A DNA stretch of 64,000 nucleotides, from positions 1 through 64,000 of IMG/VR virus record IMGVR_UViG_3300016371_000007; one strand, written 5' to 3'. The DNA is from a virus. Taxonomy: Duplodnaviria > Caudoviricetes. Under the pieces are notes generated by a model. The model was not told where the DNA came from, did not search any database, and saw only the letters and a program-made list of their open reading frames with translations. A program made the translations under genes and the position numbers. Positions 5,127-56,589 of this stretch are shown here, piece after piece; positions within the stretch are counted from its first letter, which is position 1, and every line of letters starts with the position of its first letter.

Positions 5127-5196
5127 CAGACCTTGGGATCTTTATTCTATTGCTGGTTTGGATGTTCCTGGACCGATGTAACATTTATTTCAAGCG

Positions 5197-16731: not shown

Positions 16732-17986
16732 GCTAGTCCGAGCAGCGGCAGCCGAGTCACTAAACAAGCTCACCCGAGCCGAGCTATTACGGCACTTCTT
16801 AATCTCCCGAGTCGGGGATATCACGGGGATGGACACCATCGGCGTCCCGATCTTTACTGCGATCAGGGCATTGTCCAAGACCATTGCGATCCACGCCGGG
16901 AAAGGCATGAATCCCAGACTGAGCCGAGCGGGAGCGATTGCGGAGGCTATCGAATTCGAGGCCGCTGAACATCCACATGGCAAAGCCGTCGTTGCCCAGG
17001 CGATCCAGATTCCAGCAGAAGAGCGCCTGGACATCATAGACTGTTTTCCAGCCCGCTCCAGCGTAGTGAGTGATTTCACGCCGTTGGCCTGGGAAGAAGC
17101 CACCAACATTCAGAATGGCTCAGTCAAGCTCATCCCTTCGGATCTCATCTGGATGGTCAACCGAATCGAGCAGCAGCCCTTGCTCTACTTGCAGACTGGA
17201 TCTAATGGCCTAGCCACCGGAGGCACCCTGGAAGACGCTATCCTCTCCGGCCTGTACGAGATTCTGGAACGCGATGCTTGGACCCTGCACCAGTTCTTGG
17301 TCGATAACTATGGCTACATTTCCCAGCGCATCCCGCTGGTATCACTGCCGGAACCAATCGAGGGGCTGGTGCGCAAGATCGAGGCTACGGGGTCGAGGCT
17401 GCATCTATTTGACTGCACCAATGACTACCGAATCCCGGTTATCAACGCGACGATCCTGGATCTGAGCGGCAATTGTGCCGGGATGTTTGCTGGTTATGGC
17501 TGCCATCTTAATGCCGAAGTCGCCGCTATCCGGGCGATCACCGAGGCAATCCAATCCCGAGCAGGCTATATCTCCGGGGCTAGGGATGACCTATTCCGGC
17601 GGCAGTTCTTGCTTATGAAACGCCTGGATCACGGGAAGCTGGATCAGATGTTCAGTGAGTTACCCGTAGGAGGGCTGTTATCTGAATACCGGACTGTACG
17701 CTTCGATACCATCAAAGCTGAGTTGCGCTATCTCTTACGCCTGATCAAAGCCGCCGGGGTCTCAGAGGTCTATGTGAGAGAGATCGGGGCCTACGTGGAT
17801 AACATCTATGTGGTCCGGGTATTCAGCCCTCAATGCGAGCCGTTCAGGTTCGACTTCTGGCAGCCGAGCTTGCGCTGCCTCTCCTATGCTAAGCGCAAGA
17901 TGGCCGAGCTGGCCAAGCAAGGTAAGGAGAAAGTCACTGAGCCGGAGGAAGAAGACGAGGAAGGAGAAGAATGGAAAAAGTCTTAG
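16712..17986 (+). CDS. ycaO: YcaO-family ATP-dependent peptide-backbone-activating enzyme (TfuA-associated, thioamide-forming type)
   Basis: ISRVGDITGMDTIGVP, HAGKG, AIAEAIE, SNGLATGGTLEDAILSGLYEILERDA, GYGCHL, AITEAIQSRAGYISGARDDL; no C-terminal PxP. Confidence 0.93.
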   Translation: MYNAERELVRAAAAESLNKLTRAELLRHFLISRVGDITGMDTIGVPIFTAIRALSKTIAIHAGKGMNPRLSRAGAIAEAIEFEAAEHPHGKAVVAQAIQIPAEERLDIIDCFPARSSVVSDFTPLAWEEATNIQNGSVKLIPSDLIWMVNRIEQQPLLYLQTGSNGLATGGTLEDAILSGLYEILERDAWTLHQFLVDNYGYISQRIPLVSLPEPIEGLVRKIEATGSRLHLFDCTNDYRIPVINATILDLSGNCAGMFAGYGCHLNAEVAAIRAITEAIQSRAGYISGARDDLFRRQFLLMKRLDHGKLDQMFSELPVGGLLSEYRTVRFDTIKAELRYLLRLIKAAGVSEVYVREIGAYVDNIYVVRVFSPQCEPFRFDFWQPSLRCLSYAKRKMAELAKQGKEKVTEPEEEDEEGEEWKKS

Positions 17987-19266
17987 TTTACCTGGGGCCA
18001 AGCCTTCCGATTGGGATAGCCAAAGAAATTCTCCCCGATGCGGTTTATCGCCCACCGGCCCGACAGGCTGACATCGTCAGTGATCTGGCCAGGGTCAAGC
18101 CCACGCACCTCATCCTGATCGACGGCACCTTCAGGGAGAATCTCTCGGTCTGGCATAAGGAGCTAGTGTATGCCCTCCAGTTCCCTGGAGTCCAGGCCGT
18201 CTACGGGGCTGCCAGCATAGGCGCACTCCGGGCCGCCGAGCTGGATTACCTGGGCATGATCGGCCTGGGTAAGATCTACGAATGGTACCGGGATGGAGTG
18301 ACCGAGGACGATGCCGAGGTGGCTGTTAGCTATGCCGAGCACAAAGGCCAGTATCATCTTAACAGTGTGCCGCTAGCCGATATCCGGGCTGGAGTCGAGG
18401 AGCGCGGCGACGATGCCTATTGGTTCCTGGATCGGATGCGTAGCGTGCCATATGCCGAACGCACTCACGATCTATGCGAGCGAGAATGGCAAGTAGAAGC
18501 GCTCCAGCCGAACTATCCTTGTCGGCCCCAGAAACAATTGGACGCCGAGCTGGCTCTCCGGGAGTTCCGGGATCATAAGCCGGAGCCGGTCCATAAGCCA
18601 CAACCCGATGACCTCTCAATGACTTTCGGCGCTCTCTATGAACGGGACCGGCGCATCAATATCAAGGGCGTCCCTATCCCGCAGCAACACCTGGATGCCT
18701 TCGTCCTATTACATAACCCGGAATGGGAAAGGATAACCTGGGATGCTAGCAACCAGGAGCTGGCATTAATGCTCTGCAATTTATTGCACGTTATGGTCAG
18801 CCTGGAAGAGATCGGACGGGAAAGCGCCCGGTTCCAGCAGCGGGCCGGGATCACCACCCAGGAAGAGTTCCACAGCTTCCTAGAGAACAACGGCTGGAAC
18901 ACCCACGAGTTCGACCGGCTGATGATCCGCAATGCCAGGATCCGCAAGCTCCAGCATCACCTAACGGTTTCCAAAGTCTTCAAGCGTAACACCCAGTCGG
19001 TCCTGGATTACTTGCGCACCCACCAGGGATTTGATTTCTGGGCCATCCAGGCGGCCCAGCAAGAGGCGCGACTGGATAATGATGAATGGCTCTCCATCGA
19101 CCTGGAGACTCCCGTGCTCCAGCGGCTCAAGGAGCACCTGGAGAAAGAAGGGATGGAATTCAATATGACCCCTGAAGAGTACCTCCTGGAAACCGGCTTT
19201 AGCAATTTGAATGAGCTGTCCGTAGCTCTCCAACGCACGGCAGCTGGAAAGGAACACAATGTCTAG
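17971..19266 (+). CDS. tfuA: TfuA-like protein (YcaO partner) with C-terminal helical extension
   Basis: VYLGPSL, YRPPARQADI, LIDGTF...SVWHKEL, GAASIGALRAAEL..LGMIGLGKIYEWYRDG..EDDAEVAV, LNSVPLADIR are TfuA core signatures; overlaps ycaO. Confidence 0.92.
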   Translation: MEKVLVYLGPSLPIGIAKEILPDAVYRPPARQADIVSDLARVKPTHLILIDGTFRENLSVWHKELVYALQFPGVQAVYGAASIGALRAAELDYLGMIGLGKIYEWYRDGVTEDDAEVAVSYAEHKGQYHLNSVPLADIRAGVEERGDDAYWFLDRMRSVPYAERTHDLCEREWQVEALQPNYPCRPQKQLDAELALREFRDHKPEPVHKPQPDDLSMTFGALYERDRRINIKGVPIPQQHLDAFVLLHNPEWERITWDASNQELALMLCNLLHVMVSLEEIGRESARFQQRAGITTQEEFHSFLENNGWNTHEFDRLMIRNARIRKLQHHLTVSKVFKRNTQSVLDYLRTHQGFDFWAIQAAQQEARLDNDEWLSIDLETPVLQRLKEHLEKEGMEFNMTPEEYLLETGFSNLNELSVALQRTAAGKEHNV

Positions 19267-21762: not shown

Positions 21763-24399
21763 ATGGCAGGCGGTGTAGGTGATACTAGCAGTGTACCTGA
21801 GCATGGCCCGATCCAGGCGCAATACTGGCCGCAGACACATGTTACCCAGCTTGGCCCGATCAACAGACTGGAGCCGGTTAACTGGATGGATAGCTTGGGC
21901 CTAGCGGCCCGCGAGGCTGGCAAGCAGCTGATGACGAGCATGGCAAATCCCGCCGTCAGAGAGGCGGCTCGTGCGGAGGCGATGCGTGCTCAAGCCGAGC
22001 AAAAACTCGCGCAATACTACCGGGATAATCCCATGATGCTTCGCCGGTACGGTTCAATGGGAAGCGGCGGCCTTACCACCCTAGCGAAAGCTCAATCCGG
22101 TGTCCTTGGTTACGTGGGTGACACGGATATCATGCCGACTCAGACGAATGACGCCCCGGCAGCCCCGAGTCAGACTGGAGGAGACGGAAGCGCAGAGGCC
22201 GAAAAGACCACTAAGGCATTGAAACCGGGACCAAGGCCCGGAACGGAAGAGACCCCAGCAGATGGCGACCAGAGTGACCAGAACAAGGATACCAGCAAGC
22301 CATTTGGAAGCACTACGAATTTTGGCGGCGTTTCCAATGTGCCAGCTGCACCTCAGACCATGGATGATCTGGACAGCCGGATCCGGGTGGCTGTGGCGGA
22401 TGTGATGAACAATCCCACGGCCTATCTCAATCCGGGTGGGGCGGCTCAGTATCCGAGCCAGCCTTGGTATGGAAGCCAGGGAGGACAGGTACCACAGAGA
22501 CTGGCTGATGGCGGCCAAGTGCAGCAAGCACCACAGCAGGACCAAGATAATCAGAACTTTCAGCCATCACCTTTTGTGTCCCCCGCACTCCAACAAGCAG
22601 CCGGTGGCGATCCGCAAAAAGAGCTGGCACTCCTCCGGCAATGGCAAGGCACCCAGCAGGCTAATTTGCACCCCGTCATTCCGGCTAGCGCTGTTAAAGC
22701 GGCACTGAAAGAAGGAGTACACACCGGAGTCACGGATGTGGTTTACAATCAGGGCGCTGGCCCAGGCGCACAGCCTAGTTACACCGTATACACCAAGAAC
22801 CCACAAGGACAGGGGACTACTGCGCAGACTCTGCCGCTCACCCAGGTAGCGAAATTCTTCCCGCATCTGGCTTCGGGCAGCAATATGAGTCTGGCCATGA
22901 GCGGGGCAGATATGCAACAAGGGACGCCACCGGGCATGGGAACTCCTCCGGCACCCGTTGCGCCGACAGGAGGTGCCGGAGCTGCACCAGGAGCTACAGC
23001 CGGGTTTAACGCGGGCGCTCCTTCTGCCCCAGGTGCTTTAACAGGCGGGATTCAAGGAGCTGGCCAGAATCCGAATGACGTGGTTAATCAACAGATTCAC
23101 CAGATGGTGGCCGACAGGATCCTGCATCCCGAAAATCTCCTGGTTGATAACACACCAGCCGGGAACCCGAATAATGCGACCACTAACACCTCTAATGTAG
23201 TTAAAACCAACCCAAGCAATTTCCTCGACAGCTGGCGATCTAAGGATTCAACCACTGATCCCAATCCGCCGCCGATAATGAATCCGCAAGGGATTGCAGA
23301 CGTGCAGCGGCAGAATGCAGCTCACCAGAAAGAAGGCTGGGATAAGGCCCAGGACGCAAATGACGGAAGTGGGGTCAATAAGATTGCAGCGGTACAATAT
23401 GACGGAGCTGGAGGGCAACATTTCTGGTTCCACGATACCCGTTCTAACATCAGCAGCGTGCCATTCCTGGTCTATAGCGATACCGGGTATAGCCAGATCA
23501 GGATGCCGCTCGATGGCCAGGGCCACACTATGGAGGTGATGCTGCCGGACTGGCAGATCAAAGAGAATCTTTCAAAGATGGGGATCAATCCTGAGGGCTG
23601 GTCACACAATCAGATGGTGGCCGCAGTCCAACAAGAGATCTATAACAACACCCACGGCGATTTCCCTCTGGCTACCCGGAATAAACTCGAGACCGAGTTA
23701 AATCAAACCCTCCAATCTCAGCGAGGTATTGATGCCATCACCGAACTGAACAAGCATAACCAGCCTGGAGATCCAGCCGGAAGTGGCTGGAGTATCATCC
23801 AGCGGGCTCGAGCGTACATCGATCAGAACTCGAATCTGATGGCTGGCTGGCCCCAAGCCCAACAATGGGTGACAGCCATCCAGCACGCCCTGGGCAATGC
23901 CCCTGCGCCTGCGGCATTGGTGGCGCTCCAGGATGCAATGACCCAGTTAACTGATGAAAGTCGGTTGGGTCCTGAGGAAAAGGAGGGACTACCTCCTCTG
24001 AGCTTCGACAATTACCTATTGCCTCGCCTAATCCAGTATAACCATACGATGGCGGCACGTCTTAGTCGGCAGATCTCAAGCTCTCTCAATAACAACGAAA
24101 AGATCGATGCTTCCTATCTGAAGGTAGGCAGAGGATTACGTGAGAATGGACGTGTCCCCGACACGGGACTTAGCATGGAAGCTCTCGATAAAATAACCCG
24201 GTCCAAACCGGGGACAGCTATGCCGAGCCCAACTGCGAGCCCCACTCCAGAACCAGTCTTGCAGGCGCAGCCTAACGCTACCCCGCTGGATACCCGCAAC
24301 ATGACCCAGGAGGAGATGAATAAGGCGCTTAGGAAACAGCCTTTGGGCAGCAAGTTCATCGACGGTCAAGGTCTAAAGATCCTCAGAAAATACCCGTAA
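21763..24399 (+). CDS. internal virion / ejection protein
   Basis: 878 aa, low complexity, contains LADGGQV; TAATG coupling to the giant gene. Confidence 0.6.
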   Translation: MAGGVGDTSSVPEHGPIQAQYWPQTHVTQLGPINRLEPVNWMDSLGLAAREAGKQLMTSMANPAVREAARAEAMRAQAEQKLAQYYRDNPMMLRRYGSMGSGGLTTLAKAQSGVLGYVGDTDIMPTQTNDAPAAPSQTGGDGSAEAEKTTKALKPGPRPGTEETPADGDQSDQNKDTSKPFGSTTNFGGVSNVPAAPQTMDDLDSRIRVAVADVMNNPTAYLNPGGAAQYPSQPWYGSQGGQVPQRLADGGQVQQAPQQDQDNQNFQPSPFVSPALQQAAGGDPQKELALLRQWQGTQQANLHPVIPASAVKAALKEGVHTGVTDVVYNQGAGPGAQPSYTVYTKNPQGQGTTAQTLPLTQVAKFFPHLASGSNMSLAMSGADMQQGTPPGMGTPPAPVAPTGGAGAAPGATAGFNAGAPSAPGALTGGIQGAGQNPNDVVNQQIHQMVADRILHPENLLVDNTPAGNPNNATTNTSNVVKTNPSNFLDSWRSKDSTTDPNPPPIMNPQGIADVQRQNAAHQKEGWDKAQDANDGSGVNKIAAVQYDGAGGQHFWFHDTRSNISSVPFLVYSDTGYSQIRMPLDGQGHTMEVMLPDWQIKENLSKMGINPEGWSHNQMVAAVQQEIYNNTHGDFPLATRNKLETELNQTLQSQRGIDAITELNKHNQPGDPAGSGWSIIQRARAYIDQNSNLMAGWPQAQQWVTAIQHALGNAPAPAALVALQDAMTQLTDESRLGPEEKEGLPPLSFDNYLLPRLIQYNHTMAARLSRQISSSLNNNEKIDASYLKVGRGLRENGRVPDTGLSMEALDKITRSKPGTAMPSPTASPTPEPVLQAQPNATPLDTRNMTQEEMNKALRKQPLGSKFIDGQGLKILRKYP

Positions 24400-27300
24400 T
24401 GGATCGGCCATTCCAGACTGGCGGCCCGGTGGCCAAGGATCCGCCCCCAGCTCCGACCCCGGACCTCGACCAACATTGGATGGATATGGCGAGAGTGGCT
24501 GGCTGGCCGGAAAATGAAATTCAGATAGCTACTCAGCGAGGACTTTTGAAAAGCCCAGATTTCCAGCAAGAAGTACTAAGGCATTACAACTGGAAACAGC
24601 TCCACGAAATGACTCCATCGCCTGGAATGATGGAGCATGCACCAGCACCGCCGCCAGCACCAGTACCGACTGCAACTCCAACACCGAGTGATGATGAATC
24701 TTCTGGCATTGTAATGATGTCAGACACTGGGACCGGAAAGACGATGATATCGAATGAGGACGATATTAATCGTGGAGCGATTGAGCAGACGAAAGGTTAT
24801 GGCAATCCTTCCTTGAAAGAGTCAATCCACAGCGGCAAAGGCGGCTGGCTCCCGGAGGCAATCCGGCACCCGGAACGCTACGGCTACGCGGAAGGCGGCC
24901 CAGTCAATGCGCCCGCAACTGCTTCCGGGGAATACGCTGGCTCCGATACTCCGCAGCCAGCTTCTACTCCCACTACTCCGTCTCCCCAGACAATCCAGGC
25001 TGCCCAGCAGACTCCGGCCCAGCCGGTAGCTCAGCCCACTCCGACCCAGCCGATAGCGTCAGCCGATGTAGGCGAGATAGTTCCACAGAATCAGCAGAAT
25101 GCTCCGGTCGCAGCCCCGGATGTGGGCTCAAACGAAGAAGAGACCGTCAATGACATCGTCAAAGAGTACGGGACTAAGGCCCACATCAACGAAGGCTATT
25201 CCCATGGCCAGCTGACTAAGCCCATAGCCGTAGCCGCCATGGCAAAGATCGACGCCAACTATCAGGCAGCCGATGACGCGACAAAAAAGGCCATGGCGCA
25301 AGCCGAGCATGATGCCGAGACAGGGCAGAACAGTAAAGCGCCTGTCGCGGGCAGTGATATCGGAGAGAAGGTAATACCAGACACGGTGCCGGTGATCTCC
25401 CAGGAAAGTGGTGGGCAACGCTTTGGCCAAACCATGGCCCAGGAGTTCCTGGGGCAGCAGACACCAATAGGAGACGCTGCCCGCGCTTACCTGCAAGAGC
25501 AGCATACTCCTGATGAGATCCAGGCGGCCATGGGCAAGTTCCAGGAGGCCCAAAATCTCCTCTTACGCCAGTACAGAATTTCAGATCCTAAGACTCAGAT
25601 CGATCTCCAGCGCCAAATCAGATCCCTTCTAACTGATCTCGTACCGGACTACATGGCGCTCCGATCTGGACAAGCTGGGTGGGAAGCTGAATACGGCGGC
25701 CAGAAGATCCTCAAAAATATAGGGGCCGTGGGAACCGACATGTTTGGCTCCGGCAAGGTTAAGCCATTTGATCCCAACGGCGATCAGGTCAGTGCTTTCG
25801 AGCGCACTCCAGAGCAAGATGCTAACCGGCTGGATGCAGGAAAGAAAGCCTATGACGACTACATAGCTTCGACCACGATTGTCCCTAAGAACGTGGCCGA
25901 GGAGCGCCAGCTGGCTGTCCTCCAAAAGCATGGGATGGCACCCAGCCCGGAAGCTATCGCGGGGGCACCGGAATGGGCTACGGATGCAGGTCTAGCCTTA
26001 GTCGGCTCAGGCCTAGTTCCTGTCTTGGGCATTAACGAATTGGCATTAGAGGGAGTGCCAGAGCTAGAAGCCGCAGGCATGACTGCACGCGGCACCACCT
26101 TGCAAGCTGCCGTCAAAGGTGCGGTCTCGCGAACCGGCGGTGCGTTCAGCCGTGCTGGCGAATGGGCGCAACCTGTGGGGGCGAAATTGGCCGGTAAGAG
26201 CTTCGGCAAGCTTCTGGCGCGAACCGCCGTGGGAGGCACTCTTGGCACTGGCTGGTACATATTTGATCCCTTCACCACCAATAAGCTGGCTCTGCTTGAT
26301 CCATCCAACCCGAAGCATTGGCAAGCACTCATGGAGTATGCGCGAGACGCAGGCATCCCGAGCCTAATCGGCGGCGTGGGTGGCCTCACCCTGAACCGGG
26401 TAGGCTGGGCTAGCAGAATACTTGGCGACACCATGCGTGCGGCTGATGAACAGGCTTTCGTGCCATCGATTCAGGGCCAGTCAATCCGCACGGGGGCATC
26501 GTTCATGCCCCGTGAAGGTATCATGGGAGACATCTTCGGCCCGGAACGGACTGGTCCGGTAAATATCCCTTTCATGGAAGCAGCGCCACGGGGGATCATT
26601 CGCACACCGGCCATACAACTTGGTGGGCGCACACTCCGAAGCGCTATCGAGGCCGCCACTTCTGGCGTCCCTTATTCAGCTCTCACCTCCAAGGATACCG
26701 ATCAATTCTTACAGAACGTAGAAAACTTCGGTTACCTGGGAGCCATCGTCCACGCTCCAGTCAACTTCTGGAACGCGATCAAAGGCACATTCTTTAACCC
26801 TGCCTTTGTAGGCAGAGGCCAGGATCCGAACCGGCCACCGCCCTGGGGTCTGAGTAGCTATGGCGATAGGTACGACAACGTCTCGCGGATGGAGTTCGAC
26901 CGCATGGATAAGAGCCGTCAGAACGCCTTCCTCTATCAACAGGGCTTCGGAGACGCTAACGGGATTAAGACCCATCTTCTGCCTCCCGAGGTGGTAACTG
27001 AGGTTGCCAGGAACCTGGGCCAGGAGACTACACCCAGAGGCTTTACGATTCACAACCCGATCAGCGGGGAGACGCATACCTTCATTTCCAGCGAGCATTA
27101 CGATCCGGCAAGCGGCCATGAGTTTGGCCACAACATCCTGGATACGATGCATCCTACGGATCAGGCCCGGATGATGTTCCTGGCTAGCCGGATCCCGGAT
27201 AGCGAGATGAATGACTTCGTTACCCGGTATGCGAACGAGGCGGATCCAAGTGTTGGTCCGATTACTTTTAGCCAATTGCCAACCGAGTCAGAGATCAAGC

Positions 27301-30300
27301 CGGGTAGTCCCGATTACGATAAGGAGAAAGCCGACTTCGCCGCCAGGACCGGCAACCTGACTCAGGAACAGGCAAAGCGAGAACTCGCTGCCGATACCAT
27401 CGGCCAATGGTTTGGCGGCCAGACGGCAGAGAAATGGCTCTCAAAGAACCCAGCTTTGATGCGTGAAGCTTCGATGCTGATTGGTAGTGGCCTGGAGGGC
27501 ATGGGGATCCGCTCCACGACTGCCGATATTAATGGCCCGGTCGGTGCGCCGAAGTACATGCTCTTCGGCAAGACCATCAACAAATACGTCAAGGGCTGGG
27601 TCCGAGGCCTCTACTCTGGAGCAAACCCGATCCTCAAGCTGCCGGGGGGATTAGAGAAAGAGTTTCAGGCCCAGGAGGCAGAAGCCCGCGAAGGTAGACA
27701 GCCGCTGCCGGAACCCACCGAGGAGCAAATCGCGAAACGGGCTTACGGGATTAGCCAGAAACGACCAGCGGGCGGGGCGCAGACTGCTGAAGAGGCTAGA
27801 GAGGATTGGTTACAAGCACAGAAAGAGCTGAGAGCACAGATAGCCGCAGCTCCCCGAGTCAGGGTGCGCCAACCGCCCGGACCACCGGCAGCTCCATCCG
27901 GCCCGCAACCAGGGCCAGGAGTCTTGAAAGGCCTGATTGGAGCCTTTCACCATGCTCACGATTCGAAGGAGGCGCACGACACCCAATGGGAGCTGAAAAA
28001 GAAAGGACTCTCACCAGGAGAAGCCCAGGCAATCAGCGAAGGTAGGACCCCAACTCCAGGCCCAGCAAATCCTAGTCTGATGCCAGGAGGAAACGCGGGC
28101 GTAAAGGCCACACCCGAGGCCGTGGTCAAGCCAGCGATCCCGACCCAGCATCCGGCCCGCGAACGGCGACAGAACGAAGCCAAGGTCGCCAAAGGCAATG
28201 AGCCCCAAGATTATACCAGCAAGGTCACTAACCATAAGCTGATCGGCGTGACCGGCAGCGAGTTTGGTGAGGTCGATAATCCCAAGCGGGGCGGTTATAC
28301 CGAGCCAGGGTGGAACATTGGAGCCTGGGGCGACCGGCTGGACGGGGAGAATAACCACGGGTTTGCGCTGCCGCCATCCATCCTGCGGCATCTTGGTTGG
28401 ACCGGCCAGCACAACTACGGTCAGCTCTTTAACTCCCAGTACACAATCAGGGTTCACAACCCCAGGACTGGAGCCACTACTGAGGGACCACTCAAAGATA
28501 TCGGTCCAGGCGCAAAGACCGGCGCACTGATCGATATGCTCTGGGGGTCCCGGCATGACCTGGGCTATGGCACCAATTTCAAGGGCGGCGTTAATTTTGA
28601 GATCGTCGATAAGAAGGGCAATGTCGTCTACGCGCCGACCGGCCATGAAGTAGAGGAGGGTGGTGGCGGCGGCGGCGGCGGGGGCGGTGGACGAACAGGC
28701 GTGGTGCAGGCCGGTGGCGGGGCAGGCGGCGTAGGCAGCGCTCCGATAGCACCAGGAGCACCCGGCACCCCAGAATTCGAGGCCCAGCAACGACCAACCG
28801 TAATCCCCGGCACTCAGATGCCGGAACCGGAACAACCGGCTGCGAGACCTGCCGCCTATACGGAAGGGCCATCCTGGACTCCAGCGCCAGAACAAAGCGG
28901 CATGATGCCCATGGGGGGGTACATGGGTCCTGGCGCACAGATGACCCCTTATGGGTTCATGCCACCACCGGCAGCGCCAAGTGGTCAGGTTTCCATGATG
29001 CCTGCGCGTGGGCCGAAGCAGCTGGGTGGCAAGTACGGAGAGACTGAGGAAGAGCCCAGCACAGCCAATAATGGGCCGGTGGCTAACGCGGCAGTTGCCC
29101 CGCACCTAGCTAAAGGCACTCTGAAAGGCCTTGAAGACGCACAGATAGCTCACGCCGCAGAGCTATCAGACGATGATCTCCGGGTCCAGAAACAGCCAGA
29201 CGGCTTTTTCAAAGGTGAATACTTCCAGCGGGGAGACGCCTTGCATAGCGCTGTACTCAAGAATGTGCCGGACAAGGAAAAGGAGGTAATGGCAAAAGCT
29301 GAAGAGGCAATTGCTAACCGGCAGCCGCTCAATACCACCTATGCCAGTGCGCCACGCAAAGGCTTGGAAGCAGAAGCGCCTACAACCCGGAGCCGCCAGA
29401 TCGAATACGAGATGTCTAGCCCACAGGCGCGGCTCCTCAAGCAGACTACGGCCCAGCTGGCGGGACATACCATGATCCCCACCGCCGTGGGCGTGAAACT
29501 AGCCGCGAAGAAGGGCGCACCGCATGAAGGCTATGTCCAGGGAATTAGCACCAATGCGGTGGCGAATAACCACTGGCATATCAACCAAGCCCTAACCGAA
29601 GCCGGACATGCCAGCCCTTATCCCACGCTGGACAAGAAGTTTATGAACGATCTGGAGGGCTACATCTCCAACCTGAACGCCGGATACAGAGGCACAGGCA
29701 CTTCTCTTCAGCCCTCCACTAAAGCTTACCAAGTCAAAGTTGATCCCCGTCATGTGGCTTACCGGATTAAGCCGGAAGAAGCCGAATACATGAACATGCT
29801 GATCAACAATCAGGCGGCCAGAGCTAAGAAAGCGGGACCGCTGCGGGAGCTGGCCCGAGCCGGTGGCACGCTTTATACCGAAGAAGGCGAGACTAATCCG
29901 CTCCGGCTGGCATTAGACATGCGCGAAGCCAAGCTCCGGCATGAGGCGGCGGCGGCAAACCCAGAGAACCCAGAGCTAAAGAAACGCCTGGAGAAGCGCT
30001 GGAGCGAGGACACCCTGGAGCCAACCATTCGTACCTTTAAGGCGGGATTGGTTCACGAGACCCATGGCAGCCAAGAGGCAATGCCCGAAGCCATACGGCC
30101 TGGGGAAGAGTTCAAGGACCTAACCACGGCCATGCAGCGGCATCTGCCACGGGGACGGCCTGATGTGCCAGTGAGCGTGAACTTCATGCCAGGACGTGGT
30201 CACGCCCCAGAGTTTAAATCGGTCAGCCCAGAGGAATTCATTACCCAGCGCAATAAGTCGAAGCGACCTCAGTATTTGTCCGAACTAAGCCCACACGAGA

Positions 30301-33194
30301 TTCGCGAGCACCAGCTTTATACGAGCCATGACGGCACTTCTGGAGTAGCCATCGATCCGCATGGCGATATCCAGAATGTGTTTAACAACGGCGGCCCACA
30401 GGGTGCCGGAGCCCATGCCGTTGTCCACGCTATCGCTAATGGAGGACGGACCCTAGATGCCTACGATCCGTACTTGCCCGAGTACTACCGGCAATTCGGA
30501 TTTAACGAGACGGGTCGCATGAAATTCAATCCAACCTATGCAAAACCTGAGTGGGATTTCAAAAAGGATGATGAACCTGATGTTGTATTTATGGGCTGGA
30601 AAGGTTATCCTAATGGAGATCGTGATGCCGCTATAGCCCGAGCGACCCGGCAAGCCGAGAAGCTTCCCAATGAGCCATCAGCCCAATACTACCCAGAGAC
30701 AGACTGGGACCGAGCCAAGGACGAGAGCCGAGCTTACGCCCGAGGAGCTGAAGCTTATCGAATGGGTCGAGAAGGGCCGGAAGAAGAAGCTTACCGATCA
30801 GGAAATCCACCTAGCTTTGGAGCAGGCCCGACATCTAGGCGAGATCTAGCAGAGTCACCGGCACCGGCTTTCATGCCGATGGCCGGACGAGCGGCCAAAG
30901 GATTTAGAGGTGCGCTAAAGGCAGGCAAACTCTTTGAGACACCGATCCAGGCACGCCCAGGAACTTGGAGCGAAGCAGATCCAGACCTTGAATTTATTAG
31001 GCAAACACTTGGCTTCCCTCCTCCAGAGGGTCGCCCTGGGCCTTGGAGCCAGCAACGATTCGAGATCTCCGACCGGGACATGAAGCTGAAGCCTTCCCCG
31101 GCAAAATCTCCTTTCCCCAGCTTGTTAGAGCACCAGTCCCACCTGGGCGCTAAGGATCAACGGCTGGGAGATGTGCTCGACCATCCAGAACTTTTCAAGA
31201 ATTACCCGCAGCTAGCCAACACCAAGATTGAACTAGCTCCCAATATAAAGGGCGAGGGCTATTACTCACATCCCTGGACTGACCCGGATACCGGAGAACA
31301 TAAGGGCGATAGGCTAGTTCTGAAAGATGCTAGCGACCGCAATACGCTAGCCCATGAAATACAACATGCGGTCCAGAATATAGAGGGCCATCCTCCTGGG
31401 GCTAGCTTTGAGGCGATACACCAAAGCCTTCTCGGATCGCTGCCGATAATAAATGAGGTAGGCAAGGAGGCCATGGCTGAGTACCCGGACATGAGCCGGG
31501 AAGCCTTTATCCGCAATACGGGAGGCGGTAGCATTGGGCTTTCAAAGAAGGATCTGGATCAGCAATACACTGATTACCAGGATACCATGAGCATCCACCG
31601 CAGGGATTGGATACTCCGGCGTATGCGGGACATAGCCTTCGCGCTCTACCAGCGAACCCCCGGCGAGATGGAAGCCCGCGCTGCTGGGTATCGTGCTGCC
31701 ACACCGGAATCAAAACGGTCTCCGGCAAGACAACTGGAATGGGAGAAGGAAGCTACCAATCTGCACTATCCTATCCCGCCGGAACTGGAACGTAGCGGTA
31801 CGGTCCCACCTTGGGCGCAAATCTCCTTCATGGCCGCCAGGAAAAAGAAAGGCGAGCCGGAGCCACCGCGTGAACTATCGGAAGCCACTAAGGCCAAGCT
31901 GGGGCCGGTGCCGACAGATCCGCATCAGGCTATGATCTATCAACGGGTCGGTGAACGCCTGGACACCCAGATCCCAGGAGCTATCCCGCTGGAACCTGCC
32001 TACACAGCGGAAGGCAAGTTCCGCTGGGACGCCACAAAGAAAGCGCCGGTTTATAAGACCACCCGCTATGACATCGCCAATGCCCCTATGCTCCAGCAAC
32101 AAGGCAAAGCCATGGGTACGGTCACGGATTCCAAGGGCAAGGTCGGTCCAGCTAAAGCACCGCCAGAAACCAGGGATGAACTGGAAAGCCTGGACCCGGA
32201 AAAGCGCCTGACACCTTTCTTGAACCCGACCGACCGGAAGCGCGTAGTTCACCTCAATAAGATTAGCGCCGTCAACGCCTACGCCGACAAGCTCTACGAC
32301 TTCTACAAGTCAATCGAACATCTGCCTGAGGTCATGGGTGGCAAAGAATGGTACGACGAAGCCAAGGGCCTACTGGATAAGAACTTCGGTTCCCATGCTA
32401 GTCTCATGGCCAATCTCCTGGGGGCAACCAGCGCCGGGAACAAGGTCAAGATCAACTACAACATGGCCATCAATGCCTATCACAACTTCCTCATGGGCAG
32501 GTATGACCGGGCCATTGATCTTTACCGGCAGGCCTACGGCATCAAGCAGAGCGGCAAAGGGAACCTCATCAAGCACATCATCGAGAACAAGATCCATGAG
32601 AAGCTGAAAGACAAAGAGGGCAATCCAGAGGAAGCACCGGACAGCGACGAGGCCGCCATGGATCAGTGGATCAGGCATCACGATATAACCCCGCGCAATG
32701 AGTACGGGAAACTCTTCGGCCACAACTCAATCGCTGTCCTGAAAGTCCTGGCTCATACCTGGGAGAAAGAAGCCGGTGGTCCCAAGACCCCGAACTTCGC
32801 CGCTAATCTCGATGGCCGCTCGATTCAAGCCACGATAGACATGTGGGCCGCCCGGACCATGCGACGGCTGGGCTACGAAGGTTACACCGACAAACCCTGG
32901 CTCATCCAGCCTGCTGGTGAGACCGGAGTCAGCGATGTGGACTTCGGCCTCTCACAGCTCGCCTTCCGCAAGGCCGCCGAACGGATCGGGATCAAGCCCT
33001 CCTCGCTCCAGGCCATCCTCTGGTTTGCCGAACAGAAGCATTGGCAGGCCAACAAATGGGAGCGTGCACAGGACGCTGAAGACCGTGATTACCGGCCTAT
33101 GCTCAAGGCCTACAAACACCCAGAAGGAGTGCCGCACCGCTCCACCAAGAAATGGCTGGGAGAGAAAGAAGAAGCACCGGCAGCACCGGGCTAA
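24399..33194 (+). CDS. giant (2931 aa) polyvalent internal virion protein
   Basis: By motif: HEFGH zincin (27117), DUF2934-like segment (about 27720-27830), RlpA-like DPBB (about 28300-28620), GNAT-like (about 30300-30620), LPD23-like HEIQH (31353), HhH-glycosylase-like C-terminus (about 32330-33100). Confidence 0.7.
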   Translation: MDRPFQTGGPVAKDPPPAPTPDLDQHWMDMARVAGWPENEIQIATQRGLLKSPDFQQEVLRHYNWKQLHEMTPSPGMMEHAPAPPPAPVPTATPTPSDDESSGIVMMSDTGTGKTMISNEDDINRGAIEQTKGYGNPSLKESIHSGKGGWLPEAIRHPERYGYAEGGPVNAPATASGEYAGSDTPQPASTPTTPSPQTIQAAQQTPAQPVAQPTPTQPIASADVGEIVPQNQQNAPVAAPDVGSNEEETVNDIVKEYGTKAHINEGYSHGQLTKPIAVAAMAKIDANYQAADDATKKAMAQAEHDAETGQNSKAPVAGSDIGEKVIPDTVPVISQESGGQRFGQTMAQEFLGQQTPIGDAARAYLQEQHTPDEIQAAMGKFQEAQNLLLRQYRISDPKTQIDLQRQIRSLLTDLVPDYMALRSGQAGWEAEYGGQKILKNIGAVGTDMFGSGKVKPFDPNGDQVSAFERTPEQDANRLDAGKKAYDDYIASTTIVPKNVAEERQLAVLQKHGMAPSPEAIAGAPEWATDAGLALVGSGLVPVLGINELALEGVPELEAAGMTARGTTLQAAVKGAVSRTGGAFSRAGEWAQPVGAKLAGKSFGKLLARTAVGGTLGTGWYIFDPFTTNKLALLDPSNPKHWQALMEYARDAGIPSLIGGVGGLTLNRVGWASRILGDTMRAADEQAFVPSIQGQSIRTGASFMPREGIMGDIFGPERTGPVNIPFMEAAPRGIIRTPAIQLGGRTLRSAIEAATSGVPYSALTSKDTDQFLQNVENFGYLGAIVHAPVNFWNAIKGTFFNPAFVGRGQDPNRPPPWGLSSYGDRYDNVSRMEFDRMDKSRQNAFLYQQGFGDANGIKTHLLPPEVVTEVARNLGQETTPRGFTIHNPISGETHTFISSEHYDPASGHEFGHNILDTMHPTDQARMMFLASRIPDSEMNDFVTRYANEADPSVGPITFSQLPTESEIKPGSPDYDKEKADFAARTGNLTQEQAKRELAADTIGQWFGGQTAEKWLSKNPALMREASMLIGSGLEGMGIRSTTADINGPVGAPKYMLFGKTINKYVKGWVRGLYSGANPILKLPGGLEKEFQAQEAEAREGRQPLPEPTEEQIAKRAYGISQKRPAGGAQTAEEAREDWLQAQKELRAQIAAAPRVRVRQPPGPPAAPSGPQPGPGVLKGLIGAFHHAHDSKEAHDTQWELKKKGLSPGEAQAISEGRTPTPGPANPSLMPGGNAGVKATPEAVVKPAIPTQHPARERRQNEAKVAKGNEPQDYTSKVTNHKLIGVTGSEFGEVDNPKRGGYTEPGWNIGAWGDRLDGENNHGFALPPSILRHLGWTGQHNYGQLFNSQYTIRVHNPRTGATTEGPLKDIGPGAKTGALIDMLWGSRHDLGYGTNFKGGVNFEIVDKKGNVVYAPTGHEVEEGGGGGGGGGGGRTGVVQAGGGAGGVGSAPIAPGAPGTPEFEAQQRPTVIPGTQMPEPEQPAARPAAYTEGPSWTPAPEQSGMMPMGGYMGPGAQMTPYGFMPPPAAPSGQVSMMPARGPKQLGGKYGETEEEPSTANNGPVANAAVAPHLAKGTLKGLEDAQIAHAAELSDDDLRVQKQPDGFFKGEYFQRGDALHSAVLKNVPDKEKEVMAKAEEAIANRQPLNTTYASAPRKGLEAEAPTTRSRQIEYEMSSPQARLLKQTTAQLAGHTMIPTAVGVKLAAKKGAPHEGYVQGISTNAVANNHWHINQALTEAGHASPYPTLDKKFMNDLEGYISNLNAGYRGTGTSLQPSTKAYQVKVDPRHVAYRIKPEEAEYMNMLINNQAARAKKAGPLRELARAGGTLYTEEGETNPLRLALDMREAKLRHEAAAANPENPELKKRLEKRWSEDTLEPTIRTFKAGLVHETHGSQEAMPEAIRPGEEFKDLTTAMQRHLPRGRPDVPVSVNFMPGRGHAPEFKSVSPEEFITQRNKSKRPQYLSELSPHEIREHQLYTSHDGTSGVAIDPHGDIQNVFNNGGPQGAGAHAVVHAIANGGRTLDAYDPYLPEYYRQFGFNETGRMKFNPTYAKPEWDFKKDDEPDVVFMGWKGYPNGDRDAAIARATRQAEKLPNEPSAQYYPETDWDRAKDESRAYARGAEAYRMGREGPEEEAYRSGNPPSFGAGPTSRRDLAESPAPAFMPMAGRAAKGFRGALKAGKLFETPIQARPGTWSEADPDLEFIRQTLGFPPPEGRPGPWSQQRFEISDRDMKLKPSPAKSPFPSLLEHQSHLGAKDQRLGDVLDHPELFKNYPQLANTKIELAPNIKGEGYYSHPWTDPDTGEHKGDRLVLKDASDRNTLAHEIQHAVQNIEGHPPGASFEAIHQSLLGSLPIINEVGKEAMAEYPDMSREAFIRNTGGGSIGLSKKDLDQQYTDYQDTMSIHRRDWILRRMRDIAFALYQRTPGEMEARAAGYRAATPESKRSPARQLEWEKEATNLHYPIPPELERSGTVPPWAQISFMAARKKKGEPEPPRELSEATKAKLGPVPTDPHQAMIYQRVGERLDTQIPGAIPLEPAYTAEGKFRWDATKKAPVYKTTRYDIANAPMLQQQGKAMGTVTDSKGKVGPAKAPPETRDELESLDPEKRLTPFLNPTDRKRVVHLNKISAVNAYADKLYDFYKSIEHLPEVMGGKEWYDEAKGLLDKNFGSHASLMANLLGATSAGNKVKINYNMAINAYHNFLMGRYDRAIDLYRQAYGIKQSGKGNLIKHIIENKIHEKLKDKEGNPEEAPDSDEAAMDQWIRHHDITPRNEYGKLFGHNSIAVLKVLAHTWEKEAGGPKTPNFAANLDGRSIQATIDMWAARTMRRLGYEGYTDKPWLIQPAGETGVSDVDFGLSQLAFRKAAERIGIKPSSLQAILWFAEQKHWQANKWERAQDAEDRDYRPMLKAYKHPEGVPHRSTKKWLGEKEEAPAAPG

Positions 33195-35211: not shown

Positions 35212-36786
35212 TTGAGCAACTTCTTAGGCGGCTTCGAGAACAGCTCACTTTTGCCACCCATCGACGGAGTCAACGTCTTCATTGGCGACATGGCCTACAC
35301 CGTTGACGACGGTGGATTCTGGAATGCAGTTCAGCCGACATCCCCTTCCGGTGCGAGCCCAACCTGGGCCTGGATAGATCGATTGCGCGGCGGCCCCGGC
35401 CCACAAGGCCCTCCAGGAGTCGGTCTACCAGGACCAGCTGGTCAGATCGGCGTTGCTGGCAGAATGGGTCCTCCCGGACCACAAGGTACTGCTGGCAAGA
35501 ATGACTTCTCTTTCCTGAACAAGATGTTCGTGGTGCCAGCGTACAACGCGGCTCCGGTCACAGCTACAGTCACTGACTCTTCCTGGATGGCTGGCGGCAC
35601 ATTGGTCTACATACCCGGTGCTGGCACCTTTACTTGCGTAGGCGATCCGCCTAGTCCCAACACTGTTCTCTTAGTCAATTCCGGCGACCCCAATAACGCG
35701 GCAGCTGGGACCATGATCAGTTCCGGGACCCAGATCTCACCGGCACAATTGCGTGGCCCAATGGGTCCTCAAGGAACTCCAGGTCCTCCTGGTCCCCCCG
35801 GCCCACAAGGAGTCAGCGGAGCCAGCGTCTACACCACTTTAGCCCAGACATTCTCCGTCCCTGTCACTACTGGCACGGCCTTCGTTACCAGTGCGGATCC
35901 ATTCGGCATCGGCATGATTATCTACATTGCCAATGCCGGTTATTTCGCCGTCACCGCTGTCAACCTGACCGCAAATTCTCTCGACGTAACCAACCAAAAT
36001 TATCCCGGTGACCAACCTCCAGGAACTGTGGTGCCTGCCGGAACTACCGTCTCAGCCACTGGCCCGCAAGGGCCTCAGGGAGTTCAAGGGCCTGCCGGTC
36101 CTTCTGGCGGCCAAGGTCCAATCGGAGTCGCGCCCAGCGGCACCATTGCCATGTTTGGGTCTAAGGATGCGCCGGGAGGCTGGCTCCTCTGTAATGGTAC
36201 CCTGTACGCCACCAATGCGTATCCGGCTCTTTTTGCTGTCATCGGATATAACTACAATGTCGCGGGCGATAACCCGGCCAATTTCCGGGTACCGAACCTC
36301 GTAGGTCGCTTTGCGCTTGGCGCTTCTCCGACTTATCCCATCACACCCACAGCTGCTTCCGGCGGTGAGGTCAACCATGCTTTAACCTGGGCCGAGAACG
36401 GACCTCACTACCACAATATAAGTGTCGTCCTGGCTGACAACCAGCATGTGCATCTGAACCCGATTCACGGGCATGGACTGAACTGGACTGACCCAGGACA
36501 CGGCCACCAAAACTATTATTACCAGAGCATGAACGCCGGTGGGAATATTACGGTGTGGCAAGTAAGCGGTACACAAGAGGGTACTACCGGGACAATAAGT
36601 GACTGCATTATCGCCGCTAAAACCGGTATCCAAGCTTCTGTCCAAAATGCTGCGGCCTTCTGGACCGGGGTCAACAACACAATCGGCGTGTACGTCAAAT
36701 CTGCCTCTTCCGATACTCAGGGCTCCGGCACTCCCCATAACAACATGCCGCCGTACGTAGTCGTCGAATACATCATCAAAACATGA
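35212..36786 (+). CDS. collagen-like tail fibre with tail-collar domain
   Basis: Gly-X-Y runs; PSGTIAMFG...GGWLLCNG...YPALFAVIG...FRVPNLVGRF and HNNMPPY tail-collar motifs; TTG start uncertain. Confidence 0.8.
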   Translation: MSNFLGGFENSSLLPPIDGVNVFIGDMAYTVDDGGFWNAVQPTSPSGASPTWAWIDRLRGGPGPQGPPGVGLPGPAGQIGVAGRMGPPGPQGTAGKNDFSFLNKMFVVPAYNAAPVTATVTDSSWMAGGTLVYIPGAGTFTCVGDPPSPNTVLLVNSGDPNNAAAGTMISSGTQISPAQLRGPMGPQGTPGPPGPPGPQGVSGASVYTTLAQTFSVPVTTGTAFVTSADPFGIGMIIYIANAGYFAVTAVNLTANSLDVTNQNYPGDQPPGTVVPAGTTVSATGPQGPQGVQGPAGPSGGQGPIGVAPSGTIAMFGSKDAPGGWLLCNGTLYATNAYPALFAVIGYNYNVAGDNPANFRVPNLVGRFALGASPTYPITPTAASGGEVNHALTWAENGPHYHNISVVLADNQHVHLNPIHGHGLNWTDPGHGHQNYYYQSMNAGGNITVWQVSGTQEGTTGTISDCIIAAKTGIQASVQNAAAFWTGVNNTIGVYVKSASSDTQGSGTPHNNMPPYVVVEYIIKT

Positions 36787-38519
36787 GCAGCGCCCCTCAA
36801 TTTACCGTCACGCCCATGGAGCCAGGAGTCCGGCCCCAGACGCCGCCCAATTACGACGGCTATGTTTACGTTTACGTCTTTACCCAGATATTGACCCCGT
36901 GGACTCAGCCTCCGGTTAACGGACAGGTCACACTGGTGGTCGCCAATTCCCAAGGCTTTGTCGGCGGGATGAGTGTCGCCATCGACGATGGCGCAGGTAA
37001 CCTTGCAGGCTATTACACTGTGGTCTCGACCACGGCTCTGGACCGAATGACCGTAAGTAGCCTGGGTGGTCAGCCGCCTGGGACCGGGTTCAGCCCCGGT
37101 AAAATCACGACCACTTCCTTGCCGGGACCGATAGGTCCTGTAGGACCCCAAGGCAGTCCGGGAGCATCTGGAGCCCAAGGTAATCCAGGACCTCCGTTGA
37201 CTCCGAAAGGTAGCGTTGCCACTCAGTCGTCCTTGCCCTCTATCGGTGTCGTTGGTGACATGTGGGTGGCACAGGATACAGGGCATGCCTGGGGCTGGAA
37301 TGGGAACCAATGGGTGGATCTTGGCGCATACCAAGGCCCAGTCGGCCCGCAAGGACCCCAAGGACCCAATGGCCCGCAAGGGATCCAAGGCGTTCCAGGG
37401 CCTGTAGGACCTCAAGGAATTCAAGGGACACAAGGGTTCCTTGGTAATCCAGGTGAAAATGCTTTCTCGACTACAACGGCAGTATTCACCGTCCCGCCAA
37501 TTGGTGGAAACGTAGTCGTCACGGTGGCTGATCCCGATTTTATGACCATAGGCGAGTATGTCTATGTAGCAGGCTCGAACGGGTCAGGACAGGCCGGAGC
37601 CCTACAGATAACAGCTATCGCGGGAAATCAGGTCACCTTATTTAATCCGCCTAGTTCCGCAGGAGCTGGAATAGGAGAGGCACCGACAGATGGGAATCTC
37701 TACGGACGACAGAATGCTTCCTGGTCTATTGTACCGACTCCAGGACCAGCAGCGCCTTTTGATCCACAGACCGGACTCTATATCTACGACCCGTTCATGT
37801 ACGGGTTCTATACGGCAGCCACTGTGCCGCCGAACTTCGTAGTGGGATCTTACGGTTCAGGGAGTGTGACTTTTGGAGCGGGTGGTGGATGGGGATTTAG
37901 CGGAACCCAGAATGGCCAGGGAATGGCCGCAGTGTTTATAAGCACGGTTGTCAATACCAGCGCCTCTTTCGGCTATGGGTGTATCGGAGCTAGTTTCAAT
38001 TCAATATTCTGGAACAAACAGGCACCATTAACACTCAAATTTCGAGCCGGAATGAACTTGGCTGCCGCACCGGCTACCGGGAACGGATTCTTGTGGAGAG
38101 TCGGCTTTTGGAACCAAGCGCAAGCTATGGGTACACAAGATCCGTTTGTCTCGACTCCTTATTGGGCGTGTTTCCTCGAGTATTCGCCTGATCAAAATGG
38201 AGGCGTTTTTCGGCTAGGCTACAGTTTTGGCGCTAACCCTGCATCGCCTGCAAACACGGCGGTGACCTATGTCAATTGCACTAGCGGAACACCGACTTGG
38301 AACAACCTTGACTGGTACGAGATTGATATCGCGGTCAACGGCACCATTACCTGCAAGCTCAATGGAACAACCATTCTCTCGAGCGCCACGCTAAATCCTG
38401 CTGGCTCCTACGGTGCAATGCTCAATCCCTACGTTGGCCTGCATAAGACGGCGGCGGCTTCGCCCAGCGTCTACGCTTACGTAGACGATCTCTATCTTTA
38501 TTTACCATACAGCAGATAA
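36783..38519 (+). CDS. collagen-like fibre with foldon-like trimerisation motif and beta-sandwich tip
   Basis: Gly-X-Y runs; IGEAPTDGNLYGRQNASW resembles the T4 fibritin foldon (EAPRDGQAYVRKDGEW). Confidence 0.75.
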   Translation: MSSAPQFTVTPMEPGVRPQTPPNYDGYVYVYVFTQILTPWTQPPVNGQVTLVVANSQGFVGGMSVAIDDGAGNLAGYYTVVSTTALDRMTVSSLGGQPPGTGFSPGKITTTSLPGPIGPVGPQGSPGASGAQGNPGPPLTPKGSVATQSSLPSIGVVGDMWVAQDTGHAWGWNGNQWVDLGAYQGPVGPQGPQGPNGPQGIQGVPGPVGPQGIQGTQGFLGNPGENAFSTTTAVFTVPPIGGNVVVTVADPDFMTIGEYVYVAGSNGSGQAGALQITAIAGNQVTLFNPPSSAGAGIGEAPTDGNLYGRQNASWSIVPTPGPAAPFDPQTGLYIYDPFMYGFYTAATVPPNFVVGSYGSGSVTFGAGGGWGFSGTQNGQGMAAVFISTVVNTSASFGYGCIGASFNSIFWNKQAPLTLKFRAGMNLAAAPATGNGFLWRVGFWNQAQAMGTQDPFVSTPYWACFLEYSPDQNGGVFRLGYSFGANPASPANTAVTYVNCTSGTPTWNNLDWYEIDIAVNGTITCKLNGTTILSSATLNPAGSYGAMLNPYVGLHKTAAASPSVYAYVDDLYLYLPYSR

Positions 38520-38522
38520 CCT

Positions 38523-42153: not shown

Positions 42154-42434
42154 TGGCCTTCGATACCATACCCTTCGTCCAGAGTGTCCTCTATAAGTCA
42201 CCCTACAGTGGGTGCTGCAATTTCTCTGGCTTCGCGAAGCCTGCGGCTGCTGCCCCGCCTGTCATTATTCAGGGACCGCCTGGGCCTATGGGTCCTCCGG
42301 GGCCTCAAGGTCCTCCTGGAGTCCGAGGTAGCCTCTGGTGGGTCGGCACCGGACCTCCTGGAACTATCGCCGGAGCGCTGCCCAACGACATGTACCTGGA
42401 TGACGCAACCGGAGATACCTATCAACTCTCATAG
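42153..42434 (+). CDS. short collagen-repeat protein
   Basis: 93 aa from ATG 42153; [16 protein letters not shown] followed by GS.WWVG.G.P...NDMYLD..TGD.Y motif. Confidence 0.65.
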
Positions 42435-42436
42435 CC

Positions 42437-46292: not shown

Positions 46293-46568
46293 ATGTGCTT
46301 ATCCCCCTACAACGCCCCAGGAGCCATCCTCTGCGTAGACCGCTATCATAAGAGTCCCAAGGCACCAGGAACGCCAATCCGGCCCATGGCGCTGCCCCCT
46401 AGCCCCATTAGCTACGGCCCACCTACCCAGGCAGGCCGGTTCGTCTGCGGAGGTCCAAGCTCGACAGGTCCGTTCCTCTTCGGTTATATGGAAGGTATCA
46501 CCTGGAGTGCCCAGGTCTTCGGACGCATCTCCTCCGGTGGCACCGGGCAGAATCTGGGATTATCGTGA
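46293..46568 (+). CDS. small Pro/Gly-rich hypothetical protein
   Basis: 91 aa from ATG 46293; GTGA overlap with the next gene. Confidence 0.5.
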   Translation: MCLSPYNAPGAILCVDRYHKSPKAPGTPIRPMALPPSPISYGPPTQAGRFVCGGPSSTGPFLFGYMEGITWSAQVFGRISSGGTGQNLGLS

Positions 46569-56312: not shown

Positions 56313-56512
56313 TGCAAACCCTACTCAACCGAATGACTGAATACGAATACGAAATAATGAGGGACGATATCCTGGGCAGGGATTACACCCGAGACCACAA
56401 GGACTGGTACATGTACCAGTGGCTCGCAGGGCGGCCCACTACCTTTTACCAGTGCACTGAGCGCTGGTATCGCAGCCCAAAGGGTCGGATCGAGTTCTAT
56501 TGGCCCATCTAA
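56312..56512 (+). CDS. small hypothetical protein
   Basis: TAATG-coupled, 66 aa. Confidence 0.5.
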   Translation: MQTLLNRMTEYEYEIMRDDILGRDYTRDHKDWYMYQWLAGRPTTFYQCTERWYRSPKGRIEFYWPI

Positions 56513-56589
56513 AGACTTTGGGCCTGCCCGGAATTCCACCTCCGAGCAGGCCCAACCGACAGATAAACGCAATCAACAGTTCGAAACAC

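Follow-up and report, generated by a model that had tools for sequence, protein, structure and literature searches.

A giant modular protein of a tailed phage: a polyvalent protein, probably delivered with the DNA, that ends in a DNA-glycosylase-like domain

In the window studied here, which is the whole stretch of 64,000 nucleotides (nt) from position 1 to 64,000 of the IMG/VR virus record IMGVR_UViG_3300016371_000007 (75,872 bp, with a CheckV completeness estimate of 89%), an uninterrupted open reading frame (ORF) at 24399-33194 on the + strand encodes a protein of 2931 amino acids (aa). What could such a giant protein be used for? Our analysis suggests that it is a polyvalent protein of a tailed phage which, by analogy with gp16 of T7 and the virion RNA polymerase (RNAP) of N4, is probably carried in the virion and released with the DNA into the host envelope and cytoplasm. 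We infer its internal or ejected status from the position of the gene, the size of the product, a putative wall-degrading domain and this analogy. An initial annotation, made from the sequence alone, had described the frame and two HExxH motifs, and both were confirmed by checking the open frame and by a motif scan. HEFGH lies at aa 907-911 (27117-27131) and HEIQH at aa 2319-2323 (from 31353), with GEMEAR further downstream at aa 2422-2427 (31662-31679). The two HExxH motifs compare with 0.15 expected by shuffling (P of two or more about 0.01), and both are kept in homologues. The other segments pointed out in that annotation, namely a double-psi beta-barrel (DPBB)-like one, a GNAT-like one and K..NFAANL..TIDMWA.R..LQAILW, were all found in the protein as well and are conserved in relatives.

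Module shuffling and the polyvalent class

A search of 5.8 billion proteins gave 32 giant relatives of 1.6-3.3 thousand aa (kaa), and BLAST and phmmer mapping against relatives was used to delimit the modules, here named N0, A1, A2, B, C, D, E, F1 and F2 from the N-terminus to the C-terminus. Some of these relatives carry ART-PolyVal, LPD38, LPD22, zeta toxin/AAA_33, Amidase_2 or phage lysozyme domains. The modules recur in changing orders and combinations, across hundreds of giant phage ORFs, together with the hallmark ART-PolyVal, LPD and metallopeptidase (MPTase) domains. For example, module D precedes E in the 2931-aa protein, while the order is E-D in two relatives (L002 and L003) and E is duplicated in another (L198); D adjoins an ART domain in P0017 and occurs together with one in P0015. 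Modules D and F2 are the most widespread, whereas B, C and E are rarer, being found on 9, 7 and 18 viral contigs, respectively. Structural neighbours in BFVD are likewise annotated as 'large polyvalent protein associated domain' and ART-PolyVal proteins. Among cultured phages, a nucleotide search gave no match and a protein search gave short domain matches only.

Polyvalent proteins with MPTase domains, GNAT domains beside ART and peptidoglycan hydrolase domains have been proposed to be delivered together with the DNA and to undergo processing by the MPTases that they themselves carry (Iyer, Burroughs, Anand, de Souza, Aravind 2017, J Bacteriol 199:e00245-17, PMC5512222). Because its relatives shuffle modules and carry ART-PolyVal, LPD38, zeta-toxin and amidase domains, the protein can be placed in this class, as the initial annotation had proposed. 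Its predicted content agrees with the placement: two zincin folds, a DPBB fold, an HhH-GPD fold and a GNAT-like module are combined in one polypeptide, which is phage-encoded and stands in a virion or late gene context, with tail-collar and collagen-like fibre genes downstream. Like the published members, it is a giant single chain of unrelated catalytic-type domains with interspersed zincin MPTases, a GNAT family that occurs near ART, a domain of the peptidoglycan-attacking kind and a late-gene setting. It also differs from the published catalogue in several respects. The place of the wall-attacking lysozyme, SpoIID or DD-peptidase is taken by a DPBB; there is an unannotated conserved module of 415 aa; the chain ends in the glycosylase-like DUF7178, and no glycosylase is mentioned in the text of PMC5512222; and the 2931-aa protein itself has no ART, helicase, methylase or RNAP. 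Zincin MPTase domains are also borne by the N4 virion RNAP (PMC5512222). An N4-type virion RNAP, which had been considered for a genome of about 76 kb, was ruled out, as an RNAP module is absent and neither PDB nor Pfam gave a match.

Two cultured phages have an E-type HExxHxxQ zincin in unannotated giant ORFs, namely Pseudomonas phage vB_PaeM_USP_25 (L287, 4899 aa), where the ORF directly precedes the lysis cassette, and Xanthomonas phage DES1 (L286, 2156 aa). Both could be used as experimental models.

Predicted folds along the polypeptide

Two regions were modelled with AlphaFold2: aa 740-1934 (alignment A9, 22 rows; mean predicted local distance difference test score, pLDDT, 71) and aa 2150-2931 (alignment A11, 43 rows; mean pLDDT 85.7). 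Both alignments are made of collinear relatives only; the mixed-fragment MAFFT alignments A7, A8 and A10 were excluded as misaligned, with E fragments forced onto F and A2 fragments smeared. The predicted structures show that the protein consists of independently folding modules linked by disordered stretches rich in Pro and Gly. This architecture bears on one alternative, that the protein is a tape-measure or tail-hub protein bearing a lysin domain. Large lysin-bearing phage proteins encoded 5' of fibre genes are indeed often tape measures. However, the models give separate globular domains and disordered linkers and no continuous helical ruler, and at 2931 aa such a ruler would call for a tail several hundred nm long. 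What is more, Pfam and PHROG scans revealed neither tail tube nor sheath genes, and the relatives lie on contigs of 39-77 kb with a domain content typical of polyvalent proteins. The tape-measure explanation is thus very improbable.

The initial annotation had named profile searches and AlphaFold as the way to check its domains, and the two gave different answers: most of the domain names fail by profile search alone, but models and fold searches support most of them. Whole-protein phmmer against PDB gave no match, none of the PDB profile searches run with modules D, E and F2 reached significance, and the three PHROG families that match (aa 1960-2066, 2254-2334 and 2785-2879) are without known function.

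Both HExxH segments appear zincin-like at the level of predicted fold, with the second the weaker match. Module A2 (aa 740-1080, 26616..27638, + strand) holds HEFGH and a downstream Glu995 in RELAAD. The model supports an anthrax-LF/PPEP-like zincin fold for aa ~810-1040, in which the HExxH helix follows a three-stranded sheet and the third-ligand Glu sits on a later helix. Module E (aa 2213-2465, 31035..31793, + strand), with HEIQHAVQ from 31353 and the GEMEAR segment, is a putative second zincin-like domain whose motif residues are invariant; its fold matches are weak yet all zincins (SPRTN 4.4, the VgrG2b effector domain 4.3, abylysin 3.7 and PprI 3.6). A residue check over the relatives found HExxH and the Glu invariant in both domains. 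Curated peptidase profiles did not recover them, with no Pfam match for A2 and a match of module E to eCIS_core/DUF4157 that stayed under the cut-off (E 0.058).

Module B (aa 1280-1420, 28236..28658, + strand) is predicted to have a DPBB fold of the RlpA/expansin/barwin-like kind, so that the call made in the initial annotation holds at fold level, and it is a candidate peptidoglycan-cleaving domain. Three Asp residues are invariant in all 15 sequences. Known relatives by fold are the RlpA, MltA-3D and expansin DPBBs, for example PA4485 (4avr) and the DPBB of the cyanophage A-1(L) baseplate protein (8kea_A). Unlike these, module B has no match to Pfam DPBB_1 or 3D (none in the protein at E <= 5), and in contrast to RlpA-type DPBBs it has no SPOR or other glycan-binding partner domain.

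The two following modules lie on either side of aa 1934. Module C (aa 1520-1934, 28956..30200, + strand) is an alpha/beta module of 415 aa, the largest conserved one, and is missing from the domain list of the initial annotation. In 6 relatives at 44-48% identity it has more than 100 invariant positions; the only resemblance is that of an inner small barrel of WYL/Sm-like type, and the module is without annotation. Module D (aa 1934-2135, 30198..30803, + strand) belongs to phrog_2563 (PHROG E 3e-12). A PDB profile search with it gave 11 matches at E 0.3-1.4, 7 of which are GNATs aligned collinearly. In an hhalign comparison with E. coli RimI (E 0.029, probability 1.7), PQGAGA/YYRQFGF/PDVVFM fall on RQGLGR/LYESLGF/EDAIIM, in register over motifs A and B. 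At least 481 viral contigs carry module D, which has 4993 cluster representatives in a library of 1.84 billion proteins; ESM Atlas searches with modules D and C returned only unannotated viral clusters. A RimI-like GNAT family, typically beside ART and with solo members in Actinobacteria, has been described in phage polyvalent proteins (Iyer et al. 2017, PMC5512222), and the neighbours of module D in proteins and in the Atlas fit that family.

The N-terminal part is of a different nature. N0 (aa 1-330, 24399..25388, + strand) is of low complexity by composition, rich in Pro, Ala, Gln and Thr, and has no phmmer homologues. A1 (aa 330-740) contains the sole strongly hydrophobic segment of the protein, a transmembrane-like stretch at aa 527-550 (25977..26048, + strand; peak 1.73 in a 19-residue Kyte-Doolittle window). 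Between B and C there is a disordered linker (aa 1420-1520, 28656..28958, + strand) rich in Gly, Pro and Met, with a run of 11 Gly and pLDDT <35. F1 (aa 2465-2620, 31791..32258, + strand) is a helical/beta pre-domain with pLDDT >90 from aa ~2490, for which phmmer matches are confined to 8 closer relatives.

Where does the protein begin? The stop codon of the upstream 878-aa gene and the ATG at 24399 have one base in common, while the public call P0002 starts at aa 106 of the 2931-aa ORF. The N-terminal peptide MDRPFQTGGPV also heads the frame of a 48%-identical homologue on contig L196, 5' of the public start of that gene, and because of this conservation the ATG at 24399 is the better supported start. 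P0002 (window 24399-24713) and the homologue P0003 (L196 5725-6000) both look 5'-truncated, with the conserved N-terminal peptide lying 5' of both starts.

The initial annotation had further suggested cleavage at xxGGxV sites. The pattern xxxGGx[VI] is seen 3 times, compared with 2.5 expected in a protein of 2931 aa; it is not enriched, and since it occurs at chance frequency the proposed cleavage sites are left without statistical support. The two N-terminal GGPV copies (aa 8-11 and 166-169), both within N0, are kept in the L196 homologue, where they form part of two conserved [FY]xxGGPV sites (window 24399-24431 and 24885-24905, aa 1-11 and 163-169).

DUF7178 as a glycosylase-like end domain

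Module F2 (aa 2620-2905, 32256..33113, + strand) carries DUF7178 (PF23802), matched with 41.8-51.1 bits against a Pfam gathering cut-off of 27. What kind of domain is it? The model gives a two-lobed helical fold with a helix-hairpin-helix (HhH), and its top 22 structural matches all belong to the HhH-GPD DNA-glycosylase superfamily, which bears out at fold level the glycosylase-like call for the C-terminus in the initial annotation. K2796, N2803, D2814, W2816 and R2819 are invariant in an alignment of 58 sequences and kept in 92 of 92 sequences of a wider set. Lys2796 (32784-32786) and Asp2814 (32838-32840) are 18 residues apart, as in endonuclease III, and in the model the Lys starts the second hairpin helix and the Asp caps the following helix, as in the HhH-GPD superfamily. 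The hairpin G-P-K-T-x-N-F, with I-D-x-W-x-x-R 18 residues on, resembles that of E. coli Nth; a single, statistically weak hhalign alignment puts GPKTPNF...ATIDMW on GRKTANV...AVDTHI, with K2796 on K120 and D2814 on D138. Enterobacterial Nth loci were also tried as a source for a profile and dropped, their mutual similarity being too high for a useful one. A PDB profile search with F2 found no glycosylase.

Compared with HhH-GPD enzymes such as endonuclease III, Ogg2/AGOG (Tm1821, MjOgg), hOGG1 and the queuine-salvage hydrolase QNG1/DUF2419, F2 lacks Fe-S cysteines (aa 2600-2931 are devoid of Cys), bears additional helices at its N-terminus and forms the end of a giant phage protein. Judged from the model, DUF7178 looks like a catalytically intact DNA glycosylase/lyase with a Lys/Asp pair. 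That it is an active, pre-made DNA glycosylase and abasic-site (AP) lyase entering the cell with the phage genome is possible, though we consider it doubtful.

Cultured phages gave matches to F2 solely in cluster-A mycobacteriophages, as proteins of about 190 aa; some of these are annotated as 'glycosylase', which speaks independently for the glycosylase reading. In MK4 gp76, DUF7178 is matched over its full length (E 1e-70), and the protein has an hhalign probability of 97.6 to F2; it belongs, like DroogsArmy gp83 and F2, to the same Pfam family and has the common motifs PKTxxFAxN...T[VI]DVWAAR...LQAIxW. The mycobacteriophage proteins are solo domains encoded by early right-arm genes near a Cas4-type exonuclease, whereas F2, of about 290 aa, is N-terminally extended and ends a protein of 2931 aa. 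On IMG/VR viral contigs, F2 was found on at least 488, mostly at the C-terminus of frames of 2-5 kaa. A DUF7178 profile run against short proteins gave 76 matches, none of them functionally named and many on short contigs, which are probably fragments. Three frames of 4404-5180 aa (L054, L057 and L069) have DUF7178 in mid-protein, and in that of L069 an E-type zincin follows downstream. A literature search found no paper naming DUF7178.

Gene context and delivery with the phage DNA

The giant gene ends a run of large co-directional genes, which comprises YcaO and TfuA (16712-19266), an 829-aa gene and the 878-aa gene, and tail-collar and collagen-like fibre genes come next. In most relatives with DNA examined (6 of 8), a gene of 810-880 aa stands directly 5' of the giant gene; in three other relatives the upstream gene is different or its size is not known. 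This arrangement recalls T7 gp16 (internal virion protein D) and N4 gp50 (the virion RNAP), which are also very large and encoded right before tail fibre genes. Both are thought to exit the capsid ahead of or with the DNA, and gp16 has a wall-cleaving domain. The likeness is positional and conceptual only, as the 2931-aa protein has no Pfam, PHROG or PDB sequence match to them and has neither an SLT lysozyme-like domain nor an RNAP module. Relatives fill the wall-degrading slot with Amidase_2 or lysozyme, as expected of a virion-borne entry enzyme.

One might instead suppose an unpackaged cytoplasmic multi-enzyme polyprotein, cut by its own zincins and serving DNA metabolism or host takeover. 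In keeping with this, no signal or homology to known internal virion proteins was found in Pfam, PHROG or PDB; DUF7178 and module D do exist as small solo proteins, too. But a wall-degrading type of domain would be pointless in the cytoplasm, and relatives have an amidase or lysozyme in the same region. The gene overlaps its upstream neighbour stop to start and lies in a co-directional run of large genes with tail fibre genes at its end, and an extreme size together with disordered linkers is what ejected proteins and the polyvalent class typically show (PMC5512222). We therefore regard the cytoplasmic explanation as improbable, albeit less so than a tape measure.

If the polyvalent protein is indeed carried in the virion and released with the DNA, the following course of events may be imagined. 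The N-terminal half, with its hydrophobic segment and DPBB, would help to breach the envelope and cut peptidoglycan locally during ejection. One or both zincins might cut the polyprotein into units, or cut host proteins, and the GNAT-like module might acylate a host or phage protein. DUF7178 would bind DNA via its helix-hairpin-helix and, at the onset of infection, attack an N-glycosidic bond or an abasic site, either in the incoming phage DNA, for repair or removal of a host-imposed lesion, or in host DNA.

Several points should be noticed that weigh against this proposal. Packaging, ejection, processing, enzymatic activity and a counter-defence role all rest on gene position and analogy. Searched as a whole and as ten segments at E <= 5, the protein has DUF7178 (aa 2787-2877) as its sole Pfam match, and Pfam HhH-GPD (PF00730) finds nothing at E <= 10 anywhere in the phage record. 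Module D can be called GNAT-like on weak alignments only: the in-register RimI alignment and the PDB GNATs at E ~0.3 agree with the GNAT-like call of the initial annotation, but Pfam GNAT matches neither the 2931-aa protein nor ten solo relatives of the module. The upstream 829-aa and 878-aa proteins have no PDB, Pfam or informative PHROG match and none to known ejection proteins, so that the label 'ejection operon' stays positional. DPBB folds, finally, comprise non-enzymatic proteins as well, such as expansins and protease inhibitors, and the structural neighbours of module B include non-catalytic expansins, kiwellin and the protease inhibitor SPI.

This last point leads to another explanation, that the protein is a virion-borne pilot protein whose enzyme-like folds are mainly structural or binding, with no counter-defence or effector role. 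In that case the DPBB would bind glycan like an expansin, the HhH of DUF7178 would clamp the leading end of the DNA, and the zincins would act in maturation only. HhH motifs are general DNA binders, the gene occupies the position of an ejection protein just 5' of fibre genes, and module C has weak Atlas leads to T7 gp15 and crAss cargo proteins, all of which a pilot protein would accommodate. Why, then, should catalytic-type residues be invariant in DUF7178 (K2796 and D2814), in the DPBB (its three Asp) and in both zincin-like domains? Relatives moreover swap in clear effector enzymes, ART-PolyVal and zeta toxin, and the standalone DUF7178 of mycobacteriophages is encoded among early DNA-metabolism genes, outside the structural modules. 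A purely structural pilot protein is accordingly rather unlikely in our estimate, and virion-borne delivery of a polyvalent protein is preferred.

Some neighbouring genes deserve mention in their own right. The YcaO (Pfam E 3e-56) and TfuA-like (E 5e-29) genes at 16712-19266 have overlapping ends, and the pair is also found 5' of the giant gene on L196; as pure speculation, a Gly-Gly beside this pair is a possible target of thioamidation. Downstream, 35212-45169 holds four consecutive collagen-repeat fibre genes, two with a phage tail-collar domain and one of 910 aa with five collagen stretches. The fibre cluster ends with a phage autotransporter beta-domain protein (46565-47677, PF03797, E 3e-34), whose presence suggests a Gram-negative host. 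A Ku-like DNA end-binding protein (phrog_4873, E 5e-64) is encoded at 56500-57399, and inside the presumed head module, at 3741-7376, an FkbM-type methyltransferase fused to DUF6492 adjoins glycosyltransferase-like genes.

What does the finding mean for phages of this kind? Polyvalent proteins are a predicted and hardly tested route for phages to bring ready-made enzymes along with their DNA. Two unannotated modules have been defined in one of them, the GNAT-like module D with about 5000 cluster representatives and the conserved 415-aa module C, whose WYL-like barrel could serve as a nucleic-acid or nucleotide sensor for DUF7178. DUF7178 itself, which recurs at the C-terminus of 2-5-kaa proteins in hundreds of metagenomic phages, gains a concrete, testable assignment. 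If it does act as a glycosylase and lyase delivered with the genome, DUF7178 would make up a class of injected effectors, so far unrecognised, whose targets are DNA bases. It might then remove host-imposed base damage or modification from incoming DNA as a counter-defence, or else tether the pilot protein covalently to the genome end via a Schiff base of Lys2796. Such DNA-base chemistry would extend the known repertoire of injected phage effectors.

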